A program made the position numbers and the translations under genes. DNA of 63,161 nt, counting the filler. It is 5 parts of 5 records of this genome, joined end to end, with 100 filler letters (N's around TTAATTAATTAA, not from the genome) between each part and the next. Parts side by side here need not be neighbours in the genome. Positions count along the whole stretch, not along the records: positions 42,609 to 52,563 come from SRR31156797_11257; 4 more parts are not named here. One strand, 5' to 3'. Below are positions 20,391-57,945 of this stretch, in pieces. How positions within the stretch are numbered: position 1 is the first letter of the stretch; each line of letters begins with the position of its first letter. The notes under the pieces were generated by a model. The model saw only the letters and a list, made by a program, of their open reading frames with translations, was not told the DNA's origin and did no database searches.

Positions 20391-20490
20391 NNNNNNNNNN
20401 NNNNNNNNNNNNNNNNNNNNNNNNNNNNNNNNNNTTAATTAATTAANNNNNNNNNNNNNNNNNNNNNNNNNNNNNNNNNNNNNNNNNNNN
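20391..20490. other. Artificial contig spacer
   Basis: 44 N + TTAATTAATTAA (stops in all six frames) + 44 N. Confidence 0.98.
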
Positions 20491-42508: not shown

Positions 42509-42608
42509 NNNNNNNNNNNNNNNNNNNNNNNNNNNNNNNNNNNNNNNNNNNNTTAATTAATTAANNNNNNNNNNNNNNNNNNNNNNNNNNNNNNNNNNNN
42601 NNNNNNNN
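42509..42608. other. Artificial contig spacer
   Basis: 44 N + TTAATTAATTAA + 44 N. Confidence 0.98.
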
Positions 42609-42638
42609 CGAACGATTACGAACGATTACGAACGATTA
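42609..42638 (+). repeat. 10-bp tandem repeat (CGAACGATTA)x3, truncated by the gap
   Basis: Read directly at the contig start. Confidence 0.9.
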
Positions 42639-42827
42639 ACTATTGAAGAGAAAACTATTTTAATTTATGTTTTAGATAATCAAAAAATTACAAGAAAAGA
42701 AGCTGTAGAGTTAACAGGATTACAAAATACAAAAGTATATGAGATTTTAAAAACACTTGTGGAAGATAAAAAAATATTAAAAAGATGTGGAAGTGGTAGA
42801 AGTACCTATTATAAGGTGGCAAAGTGA
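42609..42827 (+). CDS. 3' fragment of a protein with a C-terminal winged HTH (missing from the ORF track)
   Basis: Open frame RTITNDYERLTIEEKTILIYVLDNQKITRKEAVELTGLQNTKVYEILKTLVEDKKILKRCGSGRSTYYKVAK*; its TGA overlaps the hsdS GTG. Confidence 0.75.
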   Translation, partial: RTITNDYERLTIEEKTILIYVLDNQKITRKEAVELTGLQNTKVYEILKTLVEDKKILKRCGSGRSTYYKVAK

Positions 42828-44026
42828 GTAATAAATTGCCTCAAGGATGGGAAGAAAAAGAATTATCAGATTTTATAAATTTTAATCCAAAAGAAAGTAT
42901 AAAAAAAGGAACTGTTGCTAAAAGTATTCCTATGGCTTGCTTAAAAGAATTTTGTAAAAATATTACAGAATATGAAGAAAAAGAATTTAAAGGTGGTACA
43001 AAGTTTAGAAACGGGGATACTTTACTTGCAAGAATTACACCTTGTCTTGAAAATGGGAAAACAGCATTTATAGATTTTTTAGAAGAAGATGAAATTGCTT
43101 TTGGTTCTACGGAATATATTGTATTAAGAGAAAAAGAGAAAGTTAGTAATAAAGATTTTATATATTATCTTTCGATATCTCCACGATTTAGAGAAATAGC
43201 AATTAAATCAATGACAGGTTCATCAGGAAGACAGAGAGTTCAAAATGATGTTTTATTTAGTAAGAAGTTTATATTACCATCAGATATAAATGAACAAAAA
43301 AGAATAGCAGATATTTTATCTGCCTTTGATGATAAAATAGAAATTAATAATCAAATAAATAAAACCCTAGAAGAGATGGCAAGTGCACTTTTTAAAGAGT
43401 GGTTTATAAATAAAGCTGAAACAAATTGGATACAAACAAAAATAAAAAACTTTGATGTTATTGTAACTGATTATGTTGCAAATGGAAGTTTTAAATCTCT
43501 AGCTGAAAATGTGAACTACAATAATAATGAAGGCTATTCGATTTTAATAAGATTAACAGATTATAATAATAATTTTAATGGAAAATTTGTATATATTGAT
43601 AAACATGGACATGAATTTTTAAAAAAATCTGAGTTATTTGGTGGAGAAGTTGTTATATCTAATGTTGGTGCTTATTCAGGAACAGTCTTTAAGGTACCTT
43701 ATTTAAAAAGACCAATGAGTCTTGGTCCTAATGCTATTGTTCTAAAATCTAATTTTAACAATTTTTTTTATCTTTTTTTTAAAAGCTTTTATGGGCAACA
43801 TCTTTTGGATGGAATAATTACTGGTAGCGCACAACCTAAATTTAATAAAACAGCTTTTAGAAATTTAGATATAACATATCCATCTATAGAATATATAAAA
43901 GATTTTGAACAAATAGTTGAACCTTATTTTAAAAAAATTGAGCAAAACCAACAAGAAAATAAAATCTTAAAACAACAAAGAGATGCACTTTTACCAAAAC
44001 TTATAAGTGGTGAGATAAGGGTATAG
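42824..44026 (+). CDS. hsdS: Type I R-M specificity subunit
   Basis: LPQGWE start; two TRDs followed by conserved helices EQKRIADILSAFDDKIE and LKQQRDALLPKLISGEIRV. Confidence 0.93.
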   Translation: MSNKLPQGWEEKELSDFINFNPKESIKKGTVAKSIPMACLKEFCKNITEYEEKEFKGGTKFRNGDTLLARITPCLENGKTAFIDFLEEDEIAFGSTEYIVLREKEKVSNKDFIYYLSISPRFREIAIKSMTGSSGRQRVQNDVLFSKKFILPSDINEQKRIADILSAFDDKIEINNQINKTLEEMASALFKEWFINKAETNWIQTKIKNFDVIVTDYVANGSFKSLAENVNYNNNEGYSILIRLTDYNNNFNGKFVYIDKHGHEFLKKSELFGGEVVISNVGAYSGTVFKVPYLKRPMSLGPNAIVLKSNFNNFFYLFFKSFYGQHLLDGIITGSAQPKFNKTAFRNLDITYPSIEYIKDFEQIVEPYFKKIEQNQQENKILKQQRDALLPKLISGEIRV

Positions 44027-44027
44027 G

Positions 44028-45059
44028 ATGACAAAAGTAGAAAGTTTAAATGAATATTTAGACATTATCAAAGATTATGAAATAGAGTTGTACAAAGAAG
44101 GTGAAAAAAATAAAACTTTGTATTTTAGAGGTGAAACTAAAACAGGAAGGGCTTTACAACCTAGTATCTTTAGAGAGAAAGAATTATTACAAGTAGAGGA
44201 TAAATTGTTTTTTGATATGCAGAGATTAATTTATAAAGAATTTCAAAGTTTTCAAACAACACTTGATAAATTAGTATTTATGCAACATCATGGTTTACCC
44301 ACAAGACTGTTAGATATTACAGCTAATCCTTTAGTATCTTTATACTTTGCTTGTGAAAAATACCATAATGAAAATGATGGAATAGTATATATTTTACCTC
44401 AATATGAAGAGGATGATTCAGATAATAGTAAGATTATTTCTTTACTTTCACGATTGCCACAAAATTTCACTGATGAGAGAATTAAAGAATTAATATTTAA
44501 TGAACTAAATAGAGAAGCTAAGGAAATTGATTTTTTAAAATTTTTAGAGATGGATGTTTCTTTTATTAAAACAAATAGAAATAATAATAGACAGATAAAT
44601 CAAGATGGGGACTTTTTATTATTTTCTAATAATACAAAAATTCAAGAAAAACAAATATTTAGTATTGATAAAGAGAATATGGAATGTCCTCCAATAATCA
44701 TTAGTAAAAATTCAAAAAAAGATATATTAAATGAATTAAACCGGATAGGAATAAATCTTTTTACACTTTTCCCTGAACCTGAAAAACTTAGTAAGTATTT
44801 GGTTGATAAATATAAAGATAATAATATAATACAAACAGCAGTTAAATTAGATAATACAGAATTAGTATTAAGTTATTTAGAAAAGTTTGATGCAAAAGAT
44901 GTAGTAGATTTAATAGAATTTATCAATGACTATGATATTTTTAATGAAGAACATTGGAATGAATTCTTACCTCTTGCATATAACAGAATAGGTATACATG
45001 AGACTGATGAGTTAGAAAAGTATATTCATGTATTGAATAAAAAGGAAGCTAATGAATAA
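44028..45059 (+). CDS. FRG domain-containing protein
   Basis: LYFRGE, LQPSIFR, MQHHGLPTRLLDITANPLVSLYFAC, NRQINQDGDF, LNRIGINLFTLFPE. Confidence 0.9.
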   Translation: MTKVESLNEYLDIIKDYEIELYKEGEKNKTLYFRGETKTGRALQPSIFREKELLQVEDKLFFDMQRLIYKEFQSFQTTLDKLVFMQHHGLPTRLLDITANPLVSLYFACEKYHNENDGIVYILPQYEEDDSDNSKIISLLSRLPQNFTDERIKELIFNELNREAKEIDFLKFLEMDVSFIKTNRNNNRQINQDGDFLLFSNNTKIQEKQIFSIDKENMECPPIIISKNSKKDILNELNRIGINLFTLFPEPEKLSKYLVDKYKDNNIIQTAVKLDNTELVLSYLEKFDAKDVVDLIEFINDYDIFNEEHWNEFLPLAYNRIGIHETDELEKYIHVLNKKEANE

Positions 45060-48000
45060 CTTTTACGAAGACAATTTAGAACAAGCAATGATACAAATCT
45101 TTGAAAATGATTTGGGTTATGAGTATAAAAGTGGTATAGATATAGCTCCCGAATCTGTAGAGAGTGCTAGGGATGATTTTCATGAAGTTATTTTAAAAGA
45201 GAAGTTTTTTGATAGTTTAAAAAGGATTAATCCTACTATTTCAAAAGATGTCTTAGAAGATGTATTCAAACAAGTTATTCATCCTAATTCACCTATGATG
45301 AGTGAAAACAACAAGACTTTTCATAGGTATTTAGTAGAAGGTGTTGATGTAGTTTATAAAGATAAAGATGGAAATGACAAAGGGGACAAGGTATATCTTT
45401 TTGATTTTAAAGATATTACCAAAAATGAGTTTTTGATAGTCAATCAGTTTACTATCGTAGAGTTTGATGAGAGACGACCTGATTTGATACTATTTATAAA
45501 TGGCTTGCCTATGGTTGTTTTTGAGTTAAAGTCCTTGTCAAATGAAAAAGTAGGGTGTGAAAAAGCTTATAATCAATTACAAACTTACAAACAAAAGATT
45601 CCAAGTCTATTTAATACAAATGCTTTTATGGTGATAAGTGATGGAGTAAATGCAAAAGTTGGAACCATAAGTTCTAGTTTGGAGAGATTTTCATCTTGGA
45701 AAAGTGTAGATGGAGTAAAATTAAATTCACATATTCAAATAGAGACTTTACTTTTAGGAATGTTTGATAAAAATAGACTTTTGGATATCATCAAAAACTT
45801 TATTGTTTTTGTAGAAGATGGGGTGAAAAGTACAAAGATATTAAGTGCTTATCATCAATATTTTGCAGTAAAAAAAGCAATAGATTCAACTGTAAACTCA
45901 ATCTTAGAAAAATCAAAAAAAGCAGGTCTTGTATGGCATACACAAGGAAGTGGAAAATCACTCTCTATGGTATTTTATACAAGCTCCATCATACAAGCTT
46001 TGAAAAATCCTACGGTAATAGTATTAACTGATAGAAATGACTTAGATATGCAACTATTTACAACCTTTTCAAAAGCAAGTAGTATCTTAAGACAAACACC
46101 AATACAAATAGAAGATAAAGATGATTTAAGAGAGAAGTTAAATAGAGAAAGTGGAGGGATAATCTTTACTACAATTCAGAAATTTGCTCTAAAAGATGAC
46201 GAGGTACAAATAGAGTGCTTAAGTGATAGAAGAGATATTATACTTATTGCAGATGAAGCCCATAGAAGTCAATATGGCTTGGAAGCAAAGGTTGATACAA
46301 AAACAGGGAAAATAAGCTATGGATATGCCAAACATATTAGAGATGCCTTACCAAATGCAACTTTTATAGGTTTTACAGGAACTCCAATAGAAAATAGTGA
46401 TAAATCCACAAGGGAAATTTTTGGAGATGAGGTTGATATTTATGATATGACCCAAGCTGTTGAAGATGGCTCAACTGTAAAGATATATTATGAAAGTAGA
46501 ATTGCAAAACTAAAACTAGATGAAAAAGTTTTAAATGAGATTGATGAAGAATATGAAAAACTAGAAGATGAAGGTGCTCCTATAGAGCTTCTTGATGAAT
46601 CAAAAAGAAAATTCACAAAGCTAGAAGAGATAGTAGGAGATGCCCATAGACTGGAAATGTTAGCTATGGATATCGTAACTCACTATGAAGATAGAGAGAT
46701 TATCCTTGCCCCAAAATCTTTAGATAAAGCAATGATAGTTTGTATGAATAGAAAAATAGCAGTAAATCTATATGACCAAATTATAAAACTTCGACCTTCT
46801 TGGCATAGTGATGATATGGATAAGGGAAAAATAAAAGTTATTATGACATCAAGTGCAAGTGATGATGAACTTTTAAAAAAATATGAAACCACAAAAGAGG
46901 ATAGGGTTTATTTAGCAAAAAGAATCAAAGATATAAATGATGAACTAAAAATAGTGATTGTGGTGGATATGTGGCTTACTGGTTTTGATGTGCCCTCTAT
47001 GAGTACAATGTATATTGATAAACCTATGAAATCGCACAATCTAATGCAGGCAATAGCTAGAGTAAATAGAGTTTTTAAAGACAAAGTGGGTGGACTTGTA
47101 GTTGATTATATAGGAATTATGGGGTCACTAAAAGAGGCTTTACAAACATATACAAGAAGAGATGTAGATAAAGTTGAACTAAACCTTGATGCTGCTTTCC
47201 ATAAGCTAGAAGATGCTCTGACTTTCTTGAGAAAACTTTTTTCTGCTTTTGATTATAGTGGATTTGAAACTGGAAGTGATAAAGATAGATTAACTCTTAT
47301 TGGTGATGGGGTAGAACATATTTTAATAGAAAGCTATGGTGAAGAAAATATAAAAAAAGAGTTTAATAAAAAAGTTAGTGAATTAAGTGCTGCCCAAACT
47401 CTTTGTAACTCAATGCTTGATGATGATATGAAACTAGAGATTGCTTATTTTAAAGCAGTGAAAAGTGCTTTAAATAAGTTAGAGGGGGAAGAGTTTAATC
47501 TAAAAGAGATAAACCAAAGAGTTCTAAGTTTAGTAAAAGACTCTATACAAAAAGATTCTATCTTGGAGTTAAATGATATCTTAGGTATCAAGCAAAATGA
47601 GTTAGATATTTTTAATGAAGAGTTTTTACAAGAGATATCTTCAATGAAAAGAAAAAATATAGCCCTAGAACTTCTAAAAAGACTATTATCAAATAAAATA
47701 AAAGCCTATGAAAAAACAAATTTAGTTCAGAGTGAAAAGTTTTCATTTTTGATGAATGAAGTAATGAATAAATACAATAACAAAGCTCTTACAAATGCAG
47801 AAGTGATAGATGAACTTTTAAAAATGTCAAAAGATATGATGGAAGATTTTCTAAAAGGGAATGAACTAGGTCTAACAGATGAAGAAAAGTCTTTTTATGA
47901 TGCACTAACAAAGTTTGATACAGTAAAAGAAGCTATGGATGAAAGTGTTTTAAAAGAGTTAGCAGTAGAACTTACAAGAACAATACAAAATTCTAAAACA

Positions 48001-48153
48001 ATAGATTGGCAATACAAAGAGAACACAAGAGCTAGAATGAGAAGAGAAGTAAAAAGACTTCTTAAAAAATATGACTATCCTCCTAAAAAAGCATTTGATG
48101 CATTAACTTTAGTTATAAAACAGGTTGAATTGAGTTGTGAGAATGAGATTTAA
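45052..48153 (+). CDS. hsdR: Type I R-M restriction subunit
   Basis: RRPDLILFINGLPMVVFELK nuclease, HTQGSGKS, DEAH, FTGTP, MWLTGFD, QAIARVNR; 1033 aa. Confidence 0.96.
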   Translation: MNNFYEDNLEQAMIQIFENDLGYEYKSGIDIAPESVESARDDFHEVILKEKFFDSLKRINPTISKDVLEDVFKQVIHPNSPMMSENNKTFHRYLVEGVDVVYKDKDGNDKGDKVYLFDFKDITKNEFLIVNQFTIVEFDERRPDLILFINGLPMVVFELKSLSNEKVGCEKAYNQLQTYKQKIPSLFNTNAFMVISDGVNAKVGTISSSLERFSSWKSVDGVKLNSHIQIETLLLGMFDKNRLLDIIKNFIVFVEDGVKSTKILSAYHQYFAVKKAIDSTVNSILEKSKKAGLVWHTQGSGKSLSMVFYTSSIIQALKNPTVIVLTDRNDLDMQLFTTFSKASSILRQTPIQIEDKDDLREKLNRESGGIIFTTIQKFALKDDEVQIECLSDRRDIILIADEAHRSQYGLEAKVDTKTGKISYGYAKHIRDALPNATFIGFTGTPIENSDKSTREIFGDEVDIYDMTQAVEDGSTVKIYYESRIAKLKLDEKVLNEIDEEYEKLEDEGAPIELLDESKRKFTKLEEIVGDAHRLEMLAMDIVTHYEDREIILAPKSLDKAMIVCMNRKIAVNLYDQIIKLRPSWHSDDMDKGKIKVIMTSSASDDELLKKYETTKEDRVYLAKRIKDINDELKIVIVVDMWLTGFDVPSMSTMYIDKPMKSHNLMQAIARVNRVFKDKVGGLVVDYIGIMGSLKEALQTYTRRDVDKVELNLDAAFHKLEDALTFLRKLFSAFDYSGFETGSDKDRLTLIGDGVEHILIESYGEENIKKEFNKKVSELSAAQTLCNSMLDDDMKLEIAYFKAVKSALNKLEGEEFNLKEINQRVLSLVKDSIQKDSILELNDILGIKQNELDIFNEEFLQEISSMKRKNIALELLKRLLSNKIKAYEKTNLVQSEKFSFLMNEVMNKYNNKALTNAEVIDELLKMSKDMMEDFLKGNELGLTDEEKSFYDALTKFDTVKEAMDESVLKELAVELTRTIQNSKTIDWQYKENTRARMRREVKRLLKKYDYPPKKAFDALTLVIKQVELSCENEI

Positions 48154-48365
48154 ACTATCTCATCAACCTCAAACTCATAATAATCTGCAAGGGAACTAGA
48201 CATAAAATCTTTATATTCTTTTGATATGATTTCATAGTTTAGTTTTATTAACTCTTGATTTAAACTCACCTCTTTAAAGTCCATCTTGTATAGGTTTTCA
48301 AATTTAGGTGCTATATCTTTTACTTTTTGTGTTGTGAAGAAATCATCAGGATTAAATGTTTTCAT
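48150..48365 (-). CDS. Small acidic hypothetical protein (71 aa)
   Basis: AAGGA RBS 6 nt before ATG; stop overlaps the hsdR stop (shared TTAA). Confidence 0.65.
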   Translation of the reverse strand: MKTFNPDDFFTTQKVKDIAPKFENLYKMDFKEVSLNQELIKLNYEIISKEYKDFMSSSLADYYEFEVDEIV

Positions 48366-48500
48366 AATTTTCCTTTTATAATTAACATAGTTATATACAA
48401 TTCTTATTCCTTGAATTGTGTATTTATGCTAGAAATTTAATATTTACATAAACAAAAAGTTATAAAATGCGTTTTTTATGATTTATTTTGAAGGATATAT

Positions 48501-49010
48501 ATGTCAAATATAGCAATATTAGTAAGTAGTTCTAATAATAACTTGAAGCTAGGACTTAAAATAGCAGAACTTGCACAAGAGCAAGGTGTTGAAACTGAAG
48601 TTATTGATTTAGTGAGTTTAGGGTTACCTTTATATAATACAATAGAAGAAGAAAAAAATGGTATTCCTCAATCTGCAAAAGATTTAGCTAAAACAATTTT
48701 AGAAAAAAAAGCGTTTATAGTGATTGCCCCAGAATATAATGGAGTGATGCCAGCAGTTTTAAACAATGCAATTTCATGGACTTCAAGAGCAACTCCTTAT
48801 TGGAGAGATGCCTTTAATGAAAAGTTTGTAGGTTTAGCAACTCACAGTGGTGGTGGAGGAACAAAAGTTCTTCAAGCAATGAGAATCCAATTTCAACATT
48901 TAGGTGCAAATATTTTAGCAAGAGAACTTTTAACGAGTTACGATAAACCGTTAAATGAAGAGAGTGCTTTAAATATGATTTTACAACTTGATAAGTTATC
49001 AAAGTTGTAA
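48501..49010 (+). CDS. NADPH-dependent FMN reductase family flavoprotein
   Basis: LPLYN, APEYNGVMPAVLNNAISW, SGGGG. Confidence 0.88.
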   Translation: MSNIAILVSSSNNNLKLGLKIAELAQEQGVETEVIDLVSLGLPLYNTIEEEKNGIPQSAKDLAKTILEKKAFIVIAPEYNGVMPAVLNNAISWTSRATPYWRDAFNEKFVGLATHSGGGGTKVLQAMRIQFQHLGANILARELLTSYDKPLNEESALNMILQLDKLSKL

Positions 49011-49064
49011 GATATTTTAGAAATTGAGATATAATAGAGATAAAATTATTATATAGAAGAGTAT

Positions 49065-49988
49065 ATGGAACATATTTTAACTGCATTAATTCCCATTTTT
49101 TTACTTATACTTACAGGATTTTTATTTAAGAAAATAGATTTTCCTTCTGCTGAGTTTTGGAAAAGTGCAGATAAATTAACATATTTTGTTCTTATGCCTT
49201 CTTTATTGATATATAAACTCTCAACAGCAAACTTAGAAAATTTAGAAGCATTTGATTTTGTTTTAACAGGGATTTTAACAATATTTTTTATTTTGATTCT
49301 TGCTATGATATTAAAATCAAAAATGAAGTCTTCAGGGGCTTCTTTTAGTTCTGTGGTTCAAGGTGCAGTTAGATTTAATACTTATGTGTTTTTAGCATTG
49401 ATAAATGCAATTTTAGGGGATGAAGGTATTGCTTTAGCAGCTTTACTTATAACATTTGCTATACCTATTTTAAATGTAATATGTATTACAGTTTTTGCTT
49501 TTTATGTTGATGATAATAAAGCAACATTTATAGGGATGTTAAAATCAATTATTAAAAATCCTTTAATAATAGCTTGTTTAATAGGTGGAGCAATAAATTA
49601 TATAGATTTTTATATGCCAATTATTGCAGTGGAGTTTTTAGAAATATTAAGTGTTTCTGCATTGCCTCTTGGACTTTTATCTATTGGTTTTGCATTAGAT
49701 TTAAACTCTATAAAAGAAGCAAAAACAGAGTTGATTGTTTCCTCTTCTCTTAAGTTAATTGTGATGCCTATTTTGATGTTTTTAGTTGGAAGTTTATTTT
49801 CACTAGATTCTTATCTTCTAACTATTTTAATAATCTTTGCAGCTATGCCAACTGCTTCATCCTCTTTTATATTAGCAAGACAATTGGGTGGAGATACAAA
49901 ACTTATGGCTTCTATAATAACTTTTGAGACTCTATTTTCTCTTTTTAGTGTGTCCTTTATTTTAGGTTTTCTTCAATACTTGAATTAA
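49065..49988 (+). CDS. AEC family transporter
   Basis: About 10 TMs; YFVLMPSL, RFNTY, NPLIIA, AMPTASSSFILARQLGGD. Confidence 0.88.
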   Translation: MEHILTALIPIFLLILTGFLFKKIDFPSAEFWKSADKLTYFVLMPSLLIYKLSTANLENLEAFDFVLTGILTIFFILILAMILKSKMKSSGASFSSVVQGAVRFNTYVFLALINAILGDEGIALAALLITFAIPILNVICITVFAFYVDDNKATFIGMLKSIIKNPLIIACLIGGAINYIDFYMPIIAVEFLEILSVSALPLGLLSIGFALDLNSIKEAKTELIVSSSLKLIVMPILMFLVGSLFSLDSYLLTILIIFAAMPTASSSFILARQLGGDTKLMASIITFETLFSLFSVSFILGFLQYLN

Positions 49989-50081
49989 TAGTATAAATTT
50001 GTGGTTACAAAATTGGCAATTAATAATGTATGCCTTTAATGAAATTGTAGTAAAATATAAGTATTAAGAAGGAGATATCTT

Positions 50082-50435
50082 ATGATTTTTTTAGTTTTAG
50101 TAGGAATTGTAGCAATAATTGTTATTGTTTTGAATATGATGGATAATTCAAATTTAGACACTATAAGACAATATTTTATTGATAATAATTGTACTAATAT
50201 TACATATTCAAAAGGTAGCTACAAGGGTATTTGTGGAGAAAAAGTTGTTGAAATCCATAATAGTTTTAATGTTGATTTAAAAGAGAACAAAAAATCAATA
50301 GATTTAGAAAAAATCAAAAAAATAAATGAAAAAAAATTAGTGATTATTATAAATGATGATTATGAAATTGAGTTCAAAGATAAACAAAATAAAGAGATAT
50401 TTTACAATAATTTAAAGGAACATTTGAATAAATGA
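50082..50435 (+). CDS. Hypothetical membrane-anchored protein
   Basis: AAGGAG RBS, N-terminal TM, 4-nt overlap with the ATPase gene. Confidence 0.7.
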   Translation: MIFLVLVGIVAIIVIVLNMMDNSNLDTIRQYFIDNNCTNITYSKGSYKGICGEKVVEIHNSFNVDLKENKKSIDLEKIKKINEKKLVIIINDDYEIEFKDKQNKEIFYNNLKEHLNK

Positions 50436-52168
50436 ATGAAATAATAGATTATATACAAGCCAAAAATGTAGAAAAAACAAGCTTTTTCAAACATTTAAAA
50501 TGCTCAAAAGAGGAAGCAAGAATTTTACAATATATTACAAAAGAATATATTATGGGTAGAGATACTTTAATTGTAATAGATATTTTGGCTGAATTTTATG
50601 ATTTAAAAAGTTTTGAACACTTAAAACATATCCAAGAGATAAAATCTCTTTTAGGACTTGGTTGGTTAGTTCAAAACAGTTTTGAACATCTAAAATTGAG
50701 TGATATGTCACAATTAGAATTATTAAATTCAGCAGTTACTTTATCAGCTGCATATTTGAAGTTTCTAGAAAAAGGTTCATTGGATTTTGTTTTACCTGAA
50801 GTGAAAAGTTATACTGACCATTTGGAATATTTACAAGACCAGTTTTTTAAAATAGATTTAGCACAGCAACTAAATCTAGTAAAAAGAAACTTTGATGAAA
50901 ATTCACCAAATATCAATAGATTAAGAACAAAATTAACTTTGCTTGAAAATAGAATTAAAGATAGAGTAAATGAAACTGATAGTGAAATTTTACTTGAAGA
51001 TTTTTTCAAACAAAACAATCTTGATGAACAAGAGCAGATGTTGTTTTTAGCTTTACTAAAAGAGGAATACTCAGGAAGTGATGGAACAATCAGAGATATG
51101 AATTCTTTGATAGAATTAATCTCAAGTGATGATTATGAAAAAATCAAATTTAGAAGTCTTTTAGAAGAGGGTTCAAACCTTGTATCAAATGGTTTGGTTG
51201 ACTATGATGAGGTTTTAACACCTTTTGGTGGCATAAATAGAAACTTCTATATCCCAGATGATGTTTTATATAAGATTTCACACCCAACAAAAAAGAAAAC
51301 AAACAATAGAAAAATAAAGCTTGATACTCTTATAAGAGACCAAGATATTTTTGAACTTGTATCTACTCATAAAACTTTAGATGATGTGATTTTGAATGAA
51401 AAAACAAGAGAGATATTAAATGACTTGTTAAAACAAGTTGATAAAACTGTGTTCAACAGATTAAAACAATGGGGAATCAAAGACAAAAAAAGAGGAATTG
51501 AAGCAAGGATAATCTTTTATGGTTTTGCTGGAACGGGTAAAACATTAACTGCATTAGCTTTAGCAAAATCTTTGAAGAAACAAGTTGTGAGTTTTGATTG
51601 TTCTAAAATCTTATCAATGTATGTTGGTGAGAGTGAAAAAAATGTAAGAGCTATTTTTGATAAATACTATGAGTTAAGAGATAAAAGTAAATCTGAACCA
51701 GTTTTGCTTTTAAATGAAGCAGACCAATTTTTGAGTGCAAGAACAACATCTAGTGGAAGTGGTAGCGAAAAGATGCATAATCAGATGCAAAATATATTTT
51801 TAGAACAGATTGAAAGGTTCGATGGAATACTTATTGCAACTACAAATCTACTAGAATCACTTGATAAAGCCTTTTCTAGAAGATTTAATTACAAAATTGA
51901 ATTTAAGAAGCCTACATTGGAACAAAGAGTTCAATTGTGGGAAAAACTATTACCTGAAAATCTTCCGTTAGAAGATGGGTTTGATATACACAGCCTTGCA
52001 GAGCATGAGCTAACTGGTGGACAAATTGAGATGATTATTAAAAACACGGCTTTTAAAGTAGCCGTTGAAGATGATCCAATTTTTACCATCAAATCTTTTG
52101 AAGAGCAAATCGAAAAAGAGAAAAAAGGGAATTTTGATTCAGAAGCGAAAGTTGGATTTTTTAGTTAA
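50432..52168 (+). CDS. AAA+ ATPase (Campylobacterota type)
   Basis: GFAGTGKT, SMYVGESEKN, LLLNEAD, ATTN, AFSRRF. Confidence 0.9.
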   Translation: MNEIIDYIQAKNVEKTSFFKHLKCSKEEARILQYITKEYIMGRDTLIVIDILAEFYDLKSFEHLKHIQEIKSLLGLGWLVQNSFEHLKLSDMSQLELLNSAVTLSAAYLKFLEKGSLDFVLPEVKSYTDHLEYLQDQFFKIDLAQQLNLVKRNFDENSPNINRLRTKLTLLENRIKDRVNETDSEILLEDFFKQNNLDEQEQMLFLALLKEEYSGSDGTIRDMNSLIELISSDDYEKIKFRSLLEEGSNLVSNGLVDYDEVLTPFGGINRNFYIPDDVLYKISHPTKKKTNNRKIKLDTLIRDQDIFELVSTHKTLDDVILNEKTREILNDLLKQVDKTVFNRLKQWGIKDKKRGIEARIIFYGFAGTGKTLTALALAKSLKKQVVSFDCSKILSMYVGESEKNVRAIFDKYYELRDKSKSEPVLLLNEADQFLSARTTSSGSGSEKMHNQMQNIFLEQIERFDGILIATTNLLESLDKAFSRRFNYKIEFKKPTLEQRVQLWEKLLPENLPLEDGFDIHSLAEHELTGGQIEMIIKNTAFKVAVEDDPIFTIKSFEEQIEKEKKGNFDSEAKVGFFS

Positions 52169-52338
52169 TAGTCTACTTTCTGAAAAGATATTAAATATTG
52201 CTTAATATTTTTTTACTATTTGATACATTTAGTTATATATAGAAAAATGTGTTAGAACTACACAATGATTATAAGACTAGCTTTATAAATCATTAGATAT
52301 TATCTAACACAAATGATAAAAATTAAGAAGGATTAAAG

Positions 52339-52563
52339 ATGACACATATGGAGTTTTCACATCCGTATTTTGGTGCATTTTTCATGTTTGTATTAACATT
52401 TGGTGCTTTTACTGCAACTGTGTTTTTAGCAAGATTTATAAGTCGAAAATTAGCTAGACTTGATACAGAAAAATTAAAGTCTACCCTTTATGAGTGTGGA
52501 CCAGAAGTTACAAAACAACCAAGTAGTATCTCAGTACAGTTTTATTTAATGGCACTACTTTTT
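52339..52563 (+). CDS. nuoA: NADH-quinone oxidoreductase subunit A (3' truncated)
   Basis: TM helix then KSTLYECG...SVQFYLMALLF. Confidence 0.88.
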
Positions 52564-52663
52564 NNNNNNNNNNNNNNNNNNNNNNNNNNNNNNNNNNNNN
52601 NNNNNNNTTAATTAATTAANNNNNNNNNNNNNNNNNNNNNNNNNNNNNNNNNNNNNNNNNNNN
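52564..52663. other. Artificial contig spacer
   Basis: 44 N + TTAATTAATTAA + 44 N. Confidence 0.98.
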
Positions 52664-57845: not shown

Positions 57846-57945
57846 NNNNNNNNNNNNNNNNNNNNNNNNNNNNNNNNNNNNNNNNNNNNTTAATTAATTA
57901 ANNNNNNNNNNNNNNNNNNNNNNNNNNNNNNNNNNNNNNNNNNNN
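57846..57945. other. Artificial contig spacer
   Basis: 44 N + TTAATTAATTAA + 44 N. Confidence 0.98.

Follow-up and report, generated by a model that had tools for sequence, protein, structure and literature searches.

The hsdS gene, a 343-aa FRG-domain gene and hsdR lie consecutively on a 9,955-bp contig of 27.7% GC, which occupies positions 42609-52563 of the window, the whole stretch of 63,161 nucleotides that was analysed. The contig is preceded by a joint (N44-TTAATTAATTAA-N44, 42509..42608, unstranded), and the DNA 5' of this joint belongs to a different contig (GC 0.445 vs 0.277). The contig opens with the 3' end of a gene truncated at the contig boundary (42609..42827, 72 codons), which encodes a winged-helix C-terminus. 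This fragment and the three genes after it are on the + strand. It is followed by hsdS (42824..44026; GTG start, 400 aa), encoding a type I specificity subunit with two target-recognition domains, by the FRG open reading frame (44028-45059) and by hsdR (45052..48153), encoding the type I restriction/translocase subunit of 1033 aa. Within the FRG gene, residues 1-261 (44028..44810) form the predicted catalytic core, supported by Pfam PF08867, PADLOC PDC-S15 and the AF2 model, while residues 262-343 and the stop codon (44811..45059) make up a clade-specific acidic tail for which AF2 predicts four helices.

The junctions between these genes were read directly. The hsdS stop codon TAG (44024-44026) is separated by one base from the FRG ATG at 44028, with AAGGG upstream, and the FRG stop codon TAA (45057-45059) lies downstream of the hsdR ATG at 45052, giving an 8-nt overlap with AAGGAAG upstream of the hsdR start. 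The original prediction had inferred translational coupling of the three genes from exactly this 1-nt gap and 8-nt overlap, and both were confirmed. Because the cut upstream gene (stop TGA, 42825-42827) also overlaps the hsdS GTG by 4 nt, the tight coupling extends to four genes or more. A terminator scan found no terminator-like site on the + strand within hsdS-FRG-hsdR, and in a promoter scan promoter-like sites were not commoner than in shuffled sequences (58 vs 60.5). It is nearly certain that the FRG gene is translated from the same message as hsdS and hsdR. It is noted that the three genes leave no space between them for a second gene (an antitoxin).

Both hsdS and hsdR are present and apparently intact. 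The hsdS product matches Pfam Methylase_S in two stretches (E 3.9e-24) and PADLOC Specificity_I (E 1.5e-72). The hsdR product scores 612 bits against TIGR00348 hsdR (cut-off 284.55) and 1076 bits against PADLOC REase_I, carries the Pfam domains HSDR_N, SWI2_SNF2, T1R_D3-like and T1RH-like_C, and looks intact from its translation, in which the ELK nuclease motif, GSGKS and DEAH can be seen. The methyltransferase gene hsdM had been predicted to be missing from view and to lie beyond the contig break. Indeed, an HMM made from 20 HsdM-like proteins finds no match in the whole window, translated in six frames as 198 pieces, and the contig begins at 42609; since the operon is cut at this position, absence of hsdM from the window does not imply its absence from the genome. 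The upstream fragment gives matches below the cut-offs to Pfam HTH_24/TrmB/SarA-Rot (E 7e-4 to 3e-3) and a match to PADLOC SoFic (E 0.005). Locally it aligns best with the C-terminus of a Fic+HTH_24 protein at related locus L019 (E 0.003), a weak hint that the fragment may be the last part of a Fic-type gene. Elsewhere on the contig, an AAA ATPase gene (50432-52168) was considered as part of an IetA/IetS system, which was ruled out by the next gene being the start of nuoA.

The FRG protein matches Pfam PF08867 over residues 30-116 (E 4.5e-20; 72.8 bits, cut-off 25) and fourteen PDC-S15 models of PADLOC, the best of them over residues 2-264 (E 5.4e-59). No PADLOC family other than PDC-S15 was matched, and no NCBIfam model. 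The three motifs on which the gene had been recognised, F33-R34-G35, Q86-HHGLPTRLLD-96 and R188-QINQDGDF-196, occupy invariant columns in an alignment of 118 family sequences. In the same alignment, N186, R188, Q192 and G194 of an NxRxxxQxG motif (186-194) are on invariant or near-invariant columns, and the invariant polar core residues are R34, R49, E57, Q86, D96, R188 and Q192. An FPE motif is found at 248-250. Almost certainly, the gene is a divergent FRG/Frg family member, corresponding to PADLOC candidate PDC-S15, in the slot from hsdS to hsdR. The family is large, with 1,280 of 3,878 scored candidates passing E 0.001. It had been described as biochemically uncharacterised, and our literature searches likewise found no published biochemical study of FRG.

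An acidic C-terminal extension of about 80 aa had also been predicted, and the tail comprises 82 residues (262-343) with 19 D/E vs 8 K/R. Its AF2 helices span 266-284, 289-301, 307-321 and 323-342, with block-mean pLDDT of about 80-90 over most of the tail and lower values at both ends. The tail is homologous only to those of the close relatives P0002-P0009 and has no Pfam match. In the ESM Atlas, the best look-alike scored 0.87, below the lead level of 0.9, and no named family was recovered. No similarity to HsdR or to the Bacteroidales-type tails was detected in comparisons by BLASTP (best E 0.17) and hhalign (probabilities of 0.1% and 3%) and with an HsdR C-terminal HMM (E 3.5). A complex prediction of FRG with HsdS returned a score of 0.00 ('no answer'), which bears neither way on binding.

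The tails of a Bacteroidales clade, of L020 and of P0046 do resemble the extreme C-terminus of HsdR, a subunit whose C-terminal domain has a role in assembly. The HsdR C-terminal HMM matches the L066 tail with E 1.8e-8 and 11 of 43 tails with E<0.01, and hhalign on the HsdR-like FRG tails gives E 4.4e-4. The L066 tail also matches Pfam T1RH-like_C (E 1.3e-5). A PDC-S15 model matches residues 909-1025 of the window HsdR (E 9.8e-9).

A fold search for an ADP-ribosyltransferase (ART)-like structure had been suggested. AF2 models were obtained for the whole protein (pLDDT 89.7) and for the core only (pLDDT 86.4, pTM 0.85). In Foldseek searches of the PDB, ART toxin entries are the top matches, taking 30 of the 48 listed rows for the full-length model (best E 0.11) and 17 of 46 for the core (best E 0.057), as counted by entry, whichever component of a complex was matched. 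None reaches E <=0.001, and TM values are 0.15-0.39. The core-only model thus gave the same fold matches as the full model, still not significant. The recurrent matches are ART-fold, NAD+-using toxins, including Rhs TreTu/TreX, MbcT, NatT and cholera-type A1 chains. At the level of sequence, none of the 118 FRG members matched an ART Pfam family, weak matches included, and PDB searches with the single protein and the 118-sequence profile gave no credible relative, the best matches being one at E 0.32 and one to interferon-gamma at E 0.018, the latter on a low-complexity stretch. The primary source for Frg is said to be Burroughs and Aravind, J Bacteriol 2020. R34, on the first predicted strand, is compatible with an ART triad (R-S-E or H-Y-E), and the position of the catalytic Glu in the ART Q/E-x-E motif appears, as read from the alignment, to be taken by G194. 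The ART-like idea is not new, being already in print from Aravind's group, which assigns Frg to the ADP-ribosyltransferase superfamily, that of the toxins matched here, and predicts it to be an antiviral effector, possibly an NADase; the assignment of the window FRG follows theirs.

To place the arrangement in context, 80 related loci were compared. The FRG gene lies within a type I R-M cluster at 22 of these 80, a share that is biased upward, because the loci are the top-scoring matches of a query that is itself R-M-embedded, and that has no counted control family beside it. FRG is directly upstream of hsdR at 12 loci, elsewhere inside a type I cluster at 7 and next to hsdM (hsdM-FRG) at 3; hsdS, FRG and hsdR are all directly adjacent at 10, and at 2 the contig begins with FRG directly before hsdR. 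Pfam scans of the genes around L001-L062 are in line with this labelling. Counting FRG genes in hsd operons had been proposed as a check, and relatives do recur there. The arrangement hsdS-FRG-hsdR is not due to chance: the E-values of the Pfam and PADLOC matches lie far under chance, and unrelated genomes share this gene order. At L001, L003 and L004, clusters of the form hsdS-AAA-x-hsdM-FRG have no hsdR within the fetched ±10 kb, the L004 contig ending 1 kb upstream, which limits the absence there. An unrelated large helicase-methylase gene lies downstream at L003.

The other 58 of the 80 loci are outside any type I cluster, with integrases, RHS/T6SS toxins, Abi_C, ApeA, SIR2 and HEPN genes as neighbours. 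FRG homologues were also found in 335 plasmid records and 11 phage records, including a P2-like phage, and no hsd genes were near the FRG copies in the two plasmid/phage records inspected. This implies that the core is able to function independently of Hsd proteins. In the family tree, the window protein and P0001-P0009 form a clade (SH-aLRT 99), which groups with L020+L038, an 8-row Bacteroidales clade and L036. This grouping is weakly supported (SH-aLRT 81-84) and involves long branches flagged by the tree program. The 11 rows of the latter three groups, which are the relatives of known context in this part of the tree, all lie inside type I R-M operons; the nine nearest relatives, P0001-P0009, are outside this count. 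Over the whole tree, the R-M label has to change at least 5-6 times.

The window FRG is a divergent new member of an already catalogued candidate family, so that the family itself is not novel. The PDC candidates of PADLOC were drawn from genes found inside BREX, DISARM and type I R-M systems (Payne et al. preprint), the last being the context of the window gene. PDC-S15 is a single-gene candidate only, for which we found no experimental test in the literature. The window protein belongs to it distantly: nothing found shares more than 65% identity with it, and its tail is confined to its own small clade. PrrC is one of the closest known systems. It is an ABC-ATPase-type anticodon nuclease, and prrC reportedly sits exactly in the hsdS-hsdR slot of EcoprrI. 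PrrC is described as embedded in the type IC locus EcoprrI and, in a review, as a guardian of the R-M system that is switched on when the restriction enzyme is inhibited by T4 Stp. Both PrrC and the window FRG are embedded in a type I locus and lack a separate antitoxin. However, the two are unrelated in sequence, only FRG/PDC-S15 profiles matching FRG; PrrC is a nuclease whereas FRG is predicted to be ART-like; and coupling to Hsd has been shown for PrrC but is inferred for FRG. The same slot holds DarTG2 in the EPEC RRDM island, which is active against phages, and either DarTG2 or an RNA-binding/AAA pair in other bacteria, where the authors regard it as a potential recombination hotspot. DarT, an ART-superfamily enzyme in phage defence, ADP-ribosylates DNA. 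DarTG2 has no sequence match to the window FRG and is an independent toxin-antitoxin pair of DarT with DarG, whereas FRG has no second gene: hsdS and hsdR flank it directly, and a macrodomain antitoxin gene beside it is absent.

The FRG gene probably gives the R-M operon a second weapon against phages, in an arrangement that is already a catalogued candidate. The original prediction of an R-M-guarded accessory effector is partly supported, by the family, the slot and the recurrence in type I operons. No immunity gene adjoins FRG, and its context-known relatives in the same part of the tree all lie in type I R-M operons; we therefore think that the lineage has a functional link to the Hsd complex, beyond mere parking. 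We tentatively favor, at somewhat short of even chances, an R-M-coupled, NAD+-using effector that acts as the second arm of the R-M system. The predicted core would be ADP-ribosyltransferase-superfamily-like and would either deplete NAD+ or ADP-ribosylate nucleic acid or protein. In the uninfected cell, FRG may be held silent through its C-terminal tail and/or the Hsd proteins, of which HsdM is the likely docking partner, and a phage that escapes or inhibits restriction would release it, so that infection is stopped with an abortive outcome. The main competitor, a serious although doubtful possibility, is an autonomous defence gene hitch-hiking at an hsdS-hsdR insertion hotspot, which would sense phage alone, use its tail as sensor or autoinhibitor and need only the Hsd promoter. 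The 58 loci without type I context, the copies on conjugative plasmids and a P2-like phage, the repeated label changes on the tree and a window tail that is not Hsd-like are all consistent with it, and the DarTG2 and RNA-binding/AAA occupants of the slot fit a simple hotspot. It accounts less readily for the uniform R-M embedding on the window's side of the tree, the HsdR-C-like tail of the sister clade and a presumed toxic enzyme without an immunity gene.

A bolder version of the coupled-effector reading, which we consider unlikely, makes the R-M-embedded FRG an alternative type I effector subunit. Its tail would dock on the HsdM2-HsdS core, copying the HsdR end in Bacteroidales and using a different four-helix tail in the window clade; when anti-restriction proteins block HsdR, FRG would use NAD+, ADP-ribosylating unmodified target DNA or collapsing the NAD+ pool. 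The L001, L003 and L004 clusters would then be type I-like systems with FRG replacing HsdR. Tight translational coupling to hsdS and hsdR would also suit an accessory or addiction factor that tunes restriction/modification, or stabilises the operon by killing cells that lose it, and the wHTH tails of 13 of the 118 family members are compatible with regulation. The invariant polar residues suggest an enzyme, however, the other family neighbourhoods are defence islands and mobile elements, and nothing points to a regulatory role for the window tail, making this improbable. Least credible of all is an intact-looking but functionless, decayed passenger. A nearest relative only 65% identical and an R-M system that may itself be incomplete, with hsdM unseen, could be taken that way, but all 19 invariant family columns (118-sequence alignment) are kept, the AF2 model is confident, ribosome-binding-like sequences are present, and 343 codons stay open in 25% GC DNA, where stops are frequent.

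An R-M-embedded FRG without an antitoxin, in a four-gene operon, offers a compact test case. It poses the questions of whether an ART-like enzyme backs up restriction as PrrC does and which Hsd subunit, if any, restrains FRG. Should the coupling prove false, the gene would be one more passenger at a known insertion hotspot. If it is true, FRG would be a second, chemically different R-M guardian, and the coupling would account for the copy of the HsdR C-terminus at the end of some FRG proteins.

The FRG gene lies on the third contig of the window (42609-52563; 9,955 bp, 27.7% GC). The five contigs are separated by linkers of the form N44-TTAATTAATTAA-N44, located by reading the sequence at 20391-20490, 42509-42608, 52564-52663 and 57846-57945, and their GC contents are, in order, 0.356, 0.445, 0.277, 0.356 and 0.290. 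Such differences point to a draft genome or to a bin whose composition is mixed, so that adjoining contigs are not genomic context for one another; with the preceding contig at 44.5% GC, the sequence left of 42609 cannot be taken as context for the FRG operon. On the + strand, ORF calls give the final 72 codons of a gene truncated at the contig edge (42609-42827), followed by hsdS with a GTG start (42824-44026), the FRG gene (44028-45059, also supported by Pfam FRG) and hsdR (45052-48153). Both hsd genes are placed unambiguously by Pfam, PADLOC and NCBIfam. The truncated gene overlaps hsdS by 4 nt (GTGA), 1 nt separates hsdS from FRG, and FRG overlaps hsdR by 8 nt; the FRG and hsdR starts are each preceded by a purine-rich, ribosome-binding-like stretch. 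The hsdS-FRG-hsdR arrangement of the original prediction is thus reproduced in every detail of its ORFs and junctions. The nuclease, Walker A and DEAH motifs are preserved in the hsdR translation. A terminator scan found no + strand terminator-like sites within the operon, and shuffled sequence yields promoter-like sites at least as often.

No hsdM was detected by profile search anywhere in the window; presumably it once lay upstream of the contig break. Downstream of hsdR the contig carries genes for an FMN reductase, a transporter, a small membrane protein and an AAA ATPase, together with the first part of nuoA, neighbours that mark the contig as chromosomal DNA with no obvious island. The ATPase (578 aa with a winged-helix domain, within 50082-52168) matches PADLOC IetA with an E-value of 1.3e-32 and scores 100 bits against NCBIfam IteA, far under the cut-off of 510. 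It is preceded and overlapped by a 117-aa ORF with a hydrophobic N-terminus, and it is not followed by an IetS-like protease, the nuoA start being the next ORF.

The identity of the window gene as a member of the FRG family is settled. The protein scores 72.8 bits against Pfam FRG and is matched over residues 2-264 (best E 5.4e-59) by PADLOC models, all 14 of which belong to the phage defence candidate family PDC-S15; no NCBIfam model matches it. Among 3,878 protein-database candidates, 1,280 are relatives at E ≤0.001. The closest show 65%, 52% and 47% identity, the remainder ≤42%, and the top identity in species-representative genomes is 38%, which places the window protein far from the known members of a large family. 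In an alignment of 118 sequences the window protein shows the three predicted FRG motifs, and 19 columns are invariant, including R34, G35, R49, E57, Q86, P91-D96, N100, R188, Q192, G194 and K230. The acidic C-terminal tail is likewise present.

The AlphaFold2 model of the full protein (pLDDT 89.7, pTM 0.76) consists of an alpha/beta core, ending near residue 262, and four helices after it, and a core-only model (pLDDT 86.4, pTM 0.85) agrees with it. Neither gave a Foldseek match in the PDB at E ≤0.001. Above that threshold, the top rows are dominated by NAD+-using toxins of the ADP-ribosyltransferase (ART) fold, which make up 30 of the 48 matches listed for the full model (best E 0.11) and 17 of the 46 listed for the core (best E 0.057). 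They include Rhs TreTu/TreX complexes, cholera and heat-labile A chains, diphtheria-type toxins, pertussis S1, PltA, CARDS, NatT and MbcT. PDB sequence and profile searches returned no ART match, and Pfam scans of all 118 FRG members found no ART family. ART-like chemistry is a prediction published for FRG by Aravind's group, with which the fold search is compatible and which it does not establish. In the literature, judged mostly from search listings, we found no biochemical work on FRG.

The genomic settings of the family were surveyed in 80 loci, the best of at least 584 that encode a relative (584 confirmed among the first 600 pattern matches). ORFs were called, and HsdR, HsdS and HsdM were labelled by phmmer and purpose-built HMMs; the Pfam check of neighbours covers 250 proteins of L001-L062 and excludes the 84 neighbours in L063-L080. 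A type I R-M context was found in 22 of the 80 loci, which were picked by their likeness to an R-M-embedded query and carry no control-family count, so the enrichment is real in kind and poorly measured. In ten loci (L015, L018, L025, L026, L032, L034, L036, L039, L048 and L052) hsdS, FRG and hsdR are directly adjacent on the same strand, with gaps of -41 to +151 nt. FRG stands at a contig end directly before hsdR in two (L016 and L066), elsewhere within the type I cluster in seven (L012, L020, L022, L033, L038, L062 and L065), and as a protein of about 500 aa immediately after hsdM in three (L001, L003 and L004). The hosts include Bacteroidota, Bacillota, Fusobacteriota, Verrucomicrobiota and Pseudomonadota.

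The last three clusters (L001 3701-10822; L003 3725-10822; L004 124-2514) read hsdS, an AAA_21/AAA_15 ATPase, an unknown gene, hsdM and FRG, the FRG gene occupying the expected place of the restriction subunit. No hsdR was found for L001 and L003 within the ±10 kb fetched, and the 220-260-aa N-terminal extension of these FRG proteins has no Pfam match. Other features accompany the R-M-embedded copies. Several full and half-size hsdS genes stand in a row upstream of FRG in L015, L025, L026, L034 and L018, the last with a tyrosine recombinase between two hsdS copies; these arrays look like phase-variable specificity shufflons. The R-M operons of L015 and L025 contain a Fic gene. Directly after the FRG-bearing operon lie HamA and a DEAD helicase (Hachiman-like) in L039 (14346-17983) and genes with T5orf172/MUG113 domains in L016, L018 and L026.

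FRG lies outside any type I cluster in the other 58 loci. Its neighbours there are integrases, HTH genes, RHS/T6SS toxin cassettes, Abi_C, ApeA-HEPN, SIR2, HEPN_Swt1, caspase-like genes, and prophage or plain housekeeping genes. In four Bacteroidales loci (L014, L021, L024 and L047), an FRG protein of about 495 aa sits beside RHS/AHH polymorphic-toxin cassettes with Hcp (TssD), Imm11 and TriTu immunity genes and a KAP NTPase; coincidentally, the structures that match the FRG core best are entries of the Rhs TreTu/TriTu complex. Homologues were also found in 11 phage records and 335 plasmid records (207 conjugative, 74 mobilizable, 54 non-mobilizable). Examples of about 454 aa are gp44 of Peduovirus P22H1, at the right end of a P2-like phage genome (L081 320-1684), and a gene of the Enterobacter IncF plasmid pK528_mcr-10 (L082 5464-6825); no hsd genes lie near FRG in these two records. 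Homologues of this length also occur on many conjugative Enterobacterales plasmids, and IS elements flank these copies.

A quick maximum-likelihood tree (90 proteins) unites the window protein and its closest relatives P0001-P0009 in one well-supported clade (SH-aLRT 99). This clade joins L020 and L038, an eight-row Bacteroidales clade and L036 with weak support (SH-aLRT 81-84), the long branches being flagged. All 11 of these context-known rows are R-M-embedded, a count that does not include the contexts of P0001-P0009. Mapped over all branches, the R-M label has to change at least five or six times, indicating that the association arose or was lost repeatedly.

FRG members vary chiefly outside the core. 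Many are tailless (about 277 aa), 13 of the 118 bear a winged-helix tail, and the N-terminal extensions of the long forms have no Pfam match. The C-terminal domain of HsdR participates in assembly with the methyltransferase core. The tails of the R-M-embedded Bacteroidales clade, of L020 and of a further relative, P0046, are similar to the very C-terminal end of HsdR; the 400-aa FRG protein of the Bacteroides intestinalis locus L015, which also encodes HsdM, has such a tail. When the last 130 residues of 17 HsdR proteins were built into an HMM, it matched 11 of 43 tails at E<0.01 (1.8e-8 for L066), and hhalign aligned 38 columns, centred on a YPDW-x-K motif, at an E-value of 4.4e-4. The L066 tail reaches 1.3e-5 against Pfam T1RH-like_C, just below the cut-off, and one PDC-S15 model matches residues 909-1025 of the window HsdR. 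If the HsdR C-terminus serves assembly, FRG proteins with such a tail may, judging from sequence, dock where HsdR docks. The window tail is homologous to those of its own clade (hhalign probability 97% against the P0004 type), and we found no similarity to HsdR, HsdR-like tails, Pfam families or named Atlas clusters.

The original prediction saw in this gene an R-M-guarded accessory anti-phage effector; the embedding stands, and the interpretation is supported in part. For the window lineage we tentatively favour, at somewhat less than even probability, a coupled arrangement whose mechanism we infer. FRG would be an NAD+-using effector produced together with the Hsd subunits, would be kept inactive by its own tail and/or the Hsd complex, and would be freed when restriction fails. 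We lean this way because the presumably toxic enzyme comes without an immunity gene, because all context-known kin on the window's side of the tree sit in type I operons, and because the tails of a sister clade are borrowed from the end of HsdR. The main competing explanation, a serious if doubtful one, is that FRG acts as a defence gene on its own and occupies a known hotspot of insertion. It draws on the many stand-alone family members and on the unrelated cargo of the same slot, where DarTG2 and an RNA-binding/AAA pair have been found at what the authors call a potential recombination hotspot. It is unlikely that FRG is an R-M accessory or addiction factor, and most improbable that it is a functionless passenger.

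Under the coupled reading, the arrangement would work by analogy like PrrC in EcoprrI, an R-M guardian according to a 2025 review; FRG is not a PrrC homologue. With DarTG2 in R-M operons it shares the slot and the presumed chemistry; unlike that system, the window FRG has no antitoxin. The window protein belongs to both the FRG family and PDC-S15. The preprint by Payne et al. drew its 145 PDC candidates, which were added to PADLOC, from genes that lie within BREX, DISARM and type I R-M systems, and its main text names neither FRG nor PDC-S15. Given this derivation and the PDC-S15 membership, FRG within R-M operons is already catalogued, and the window gene is a divergent addition to a known kind of candidate. 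The HsdR-like terminus of one R-M-embedded clade and the clusters with FRG after hsdM and no hsdR in reach (±10 kb) may be new observations. The window locus matters because it offers a convenient test-case operon for a large FRG family.
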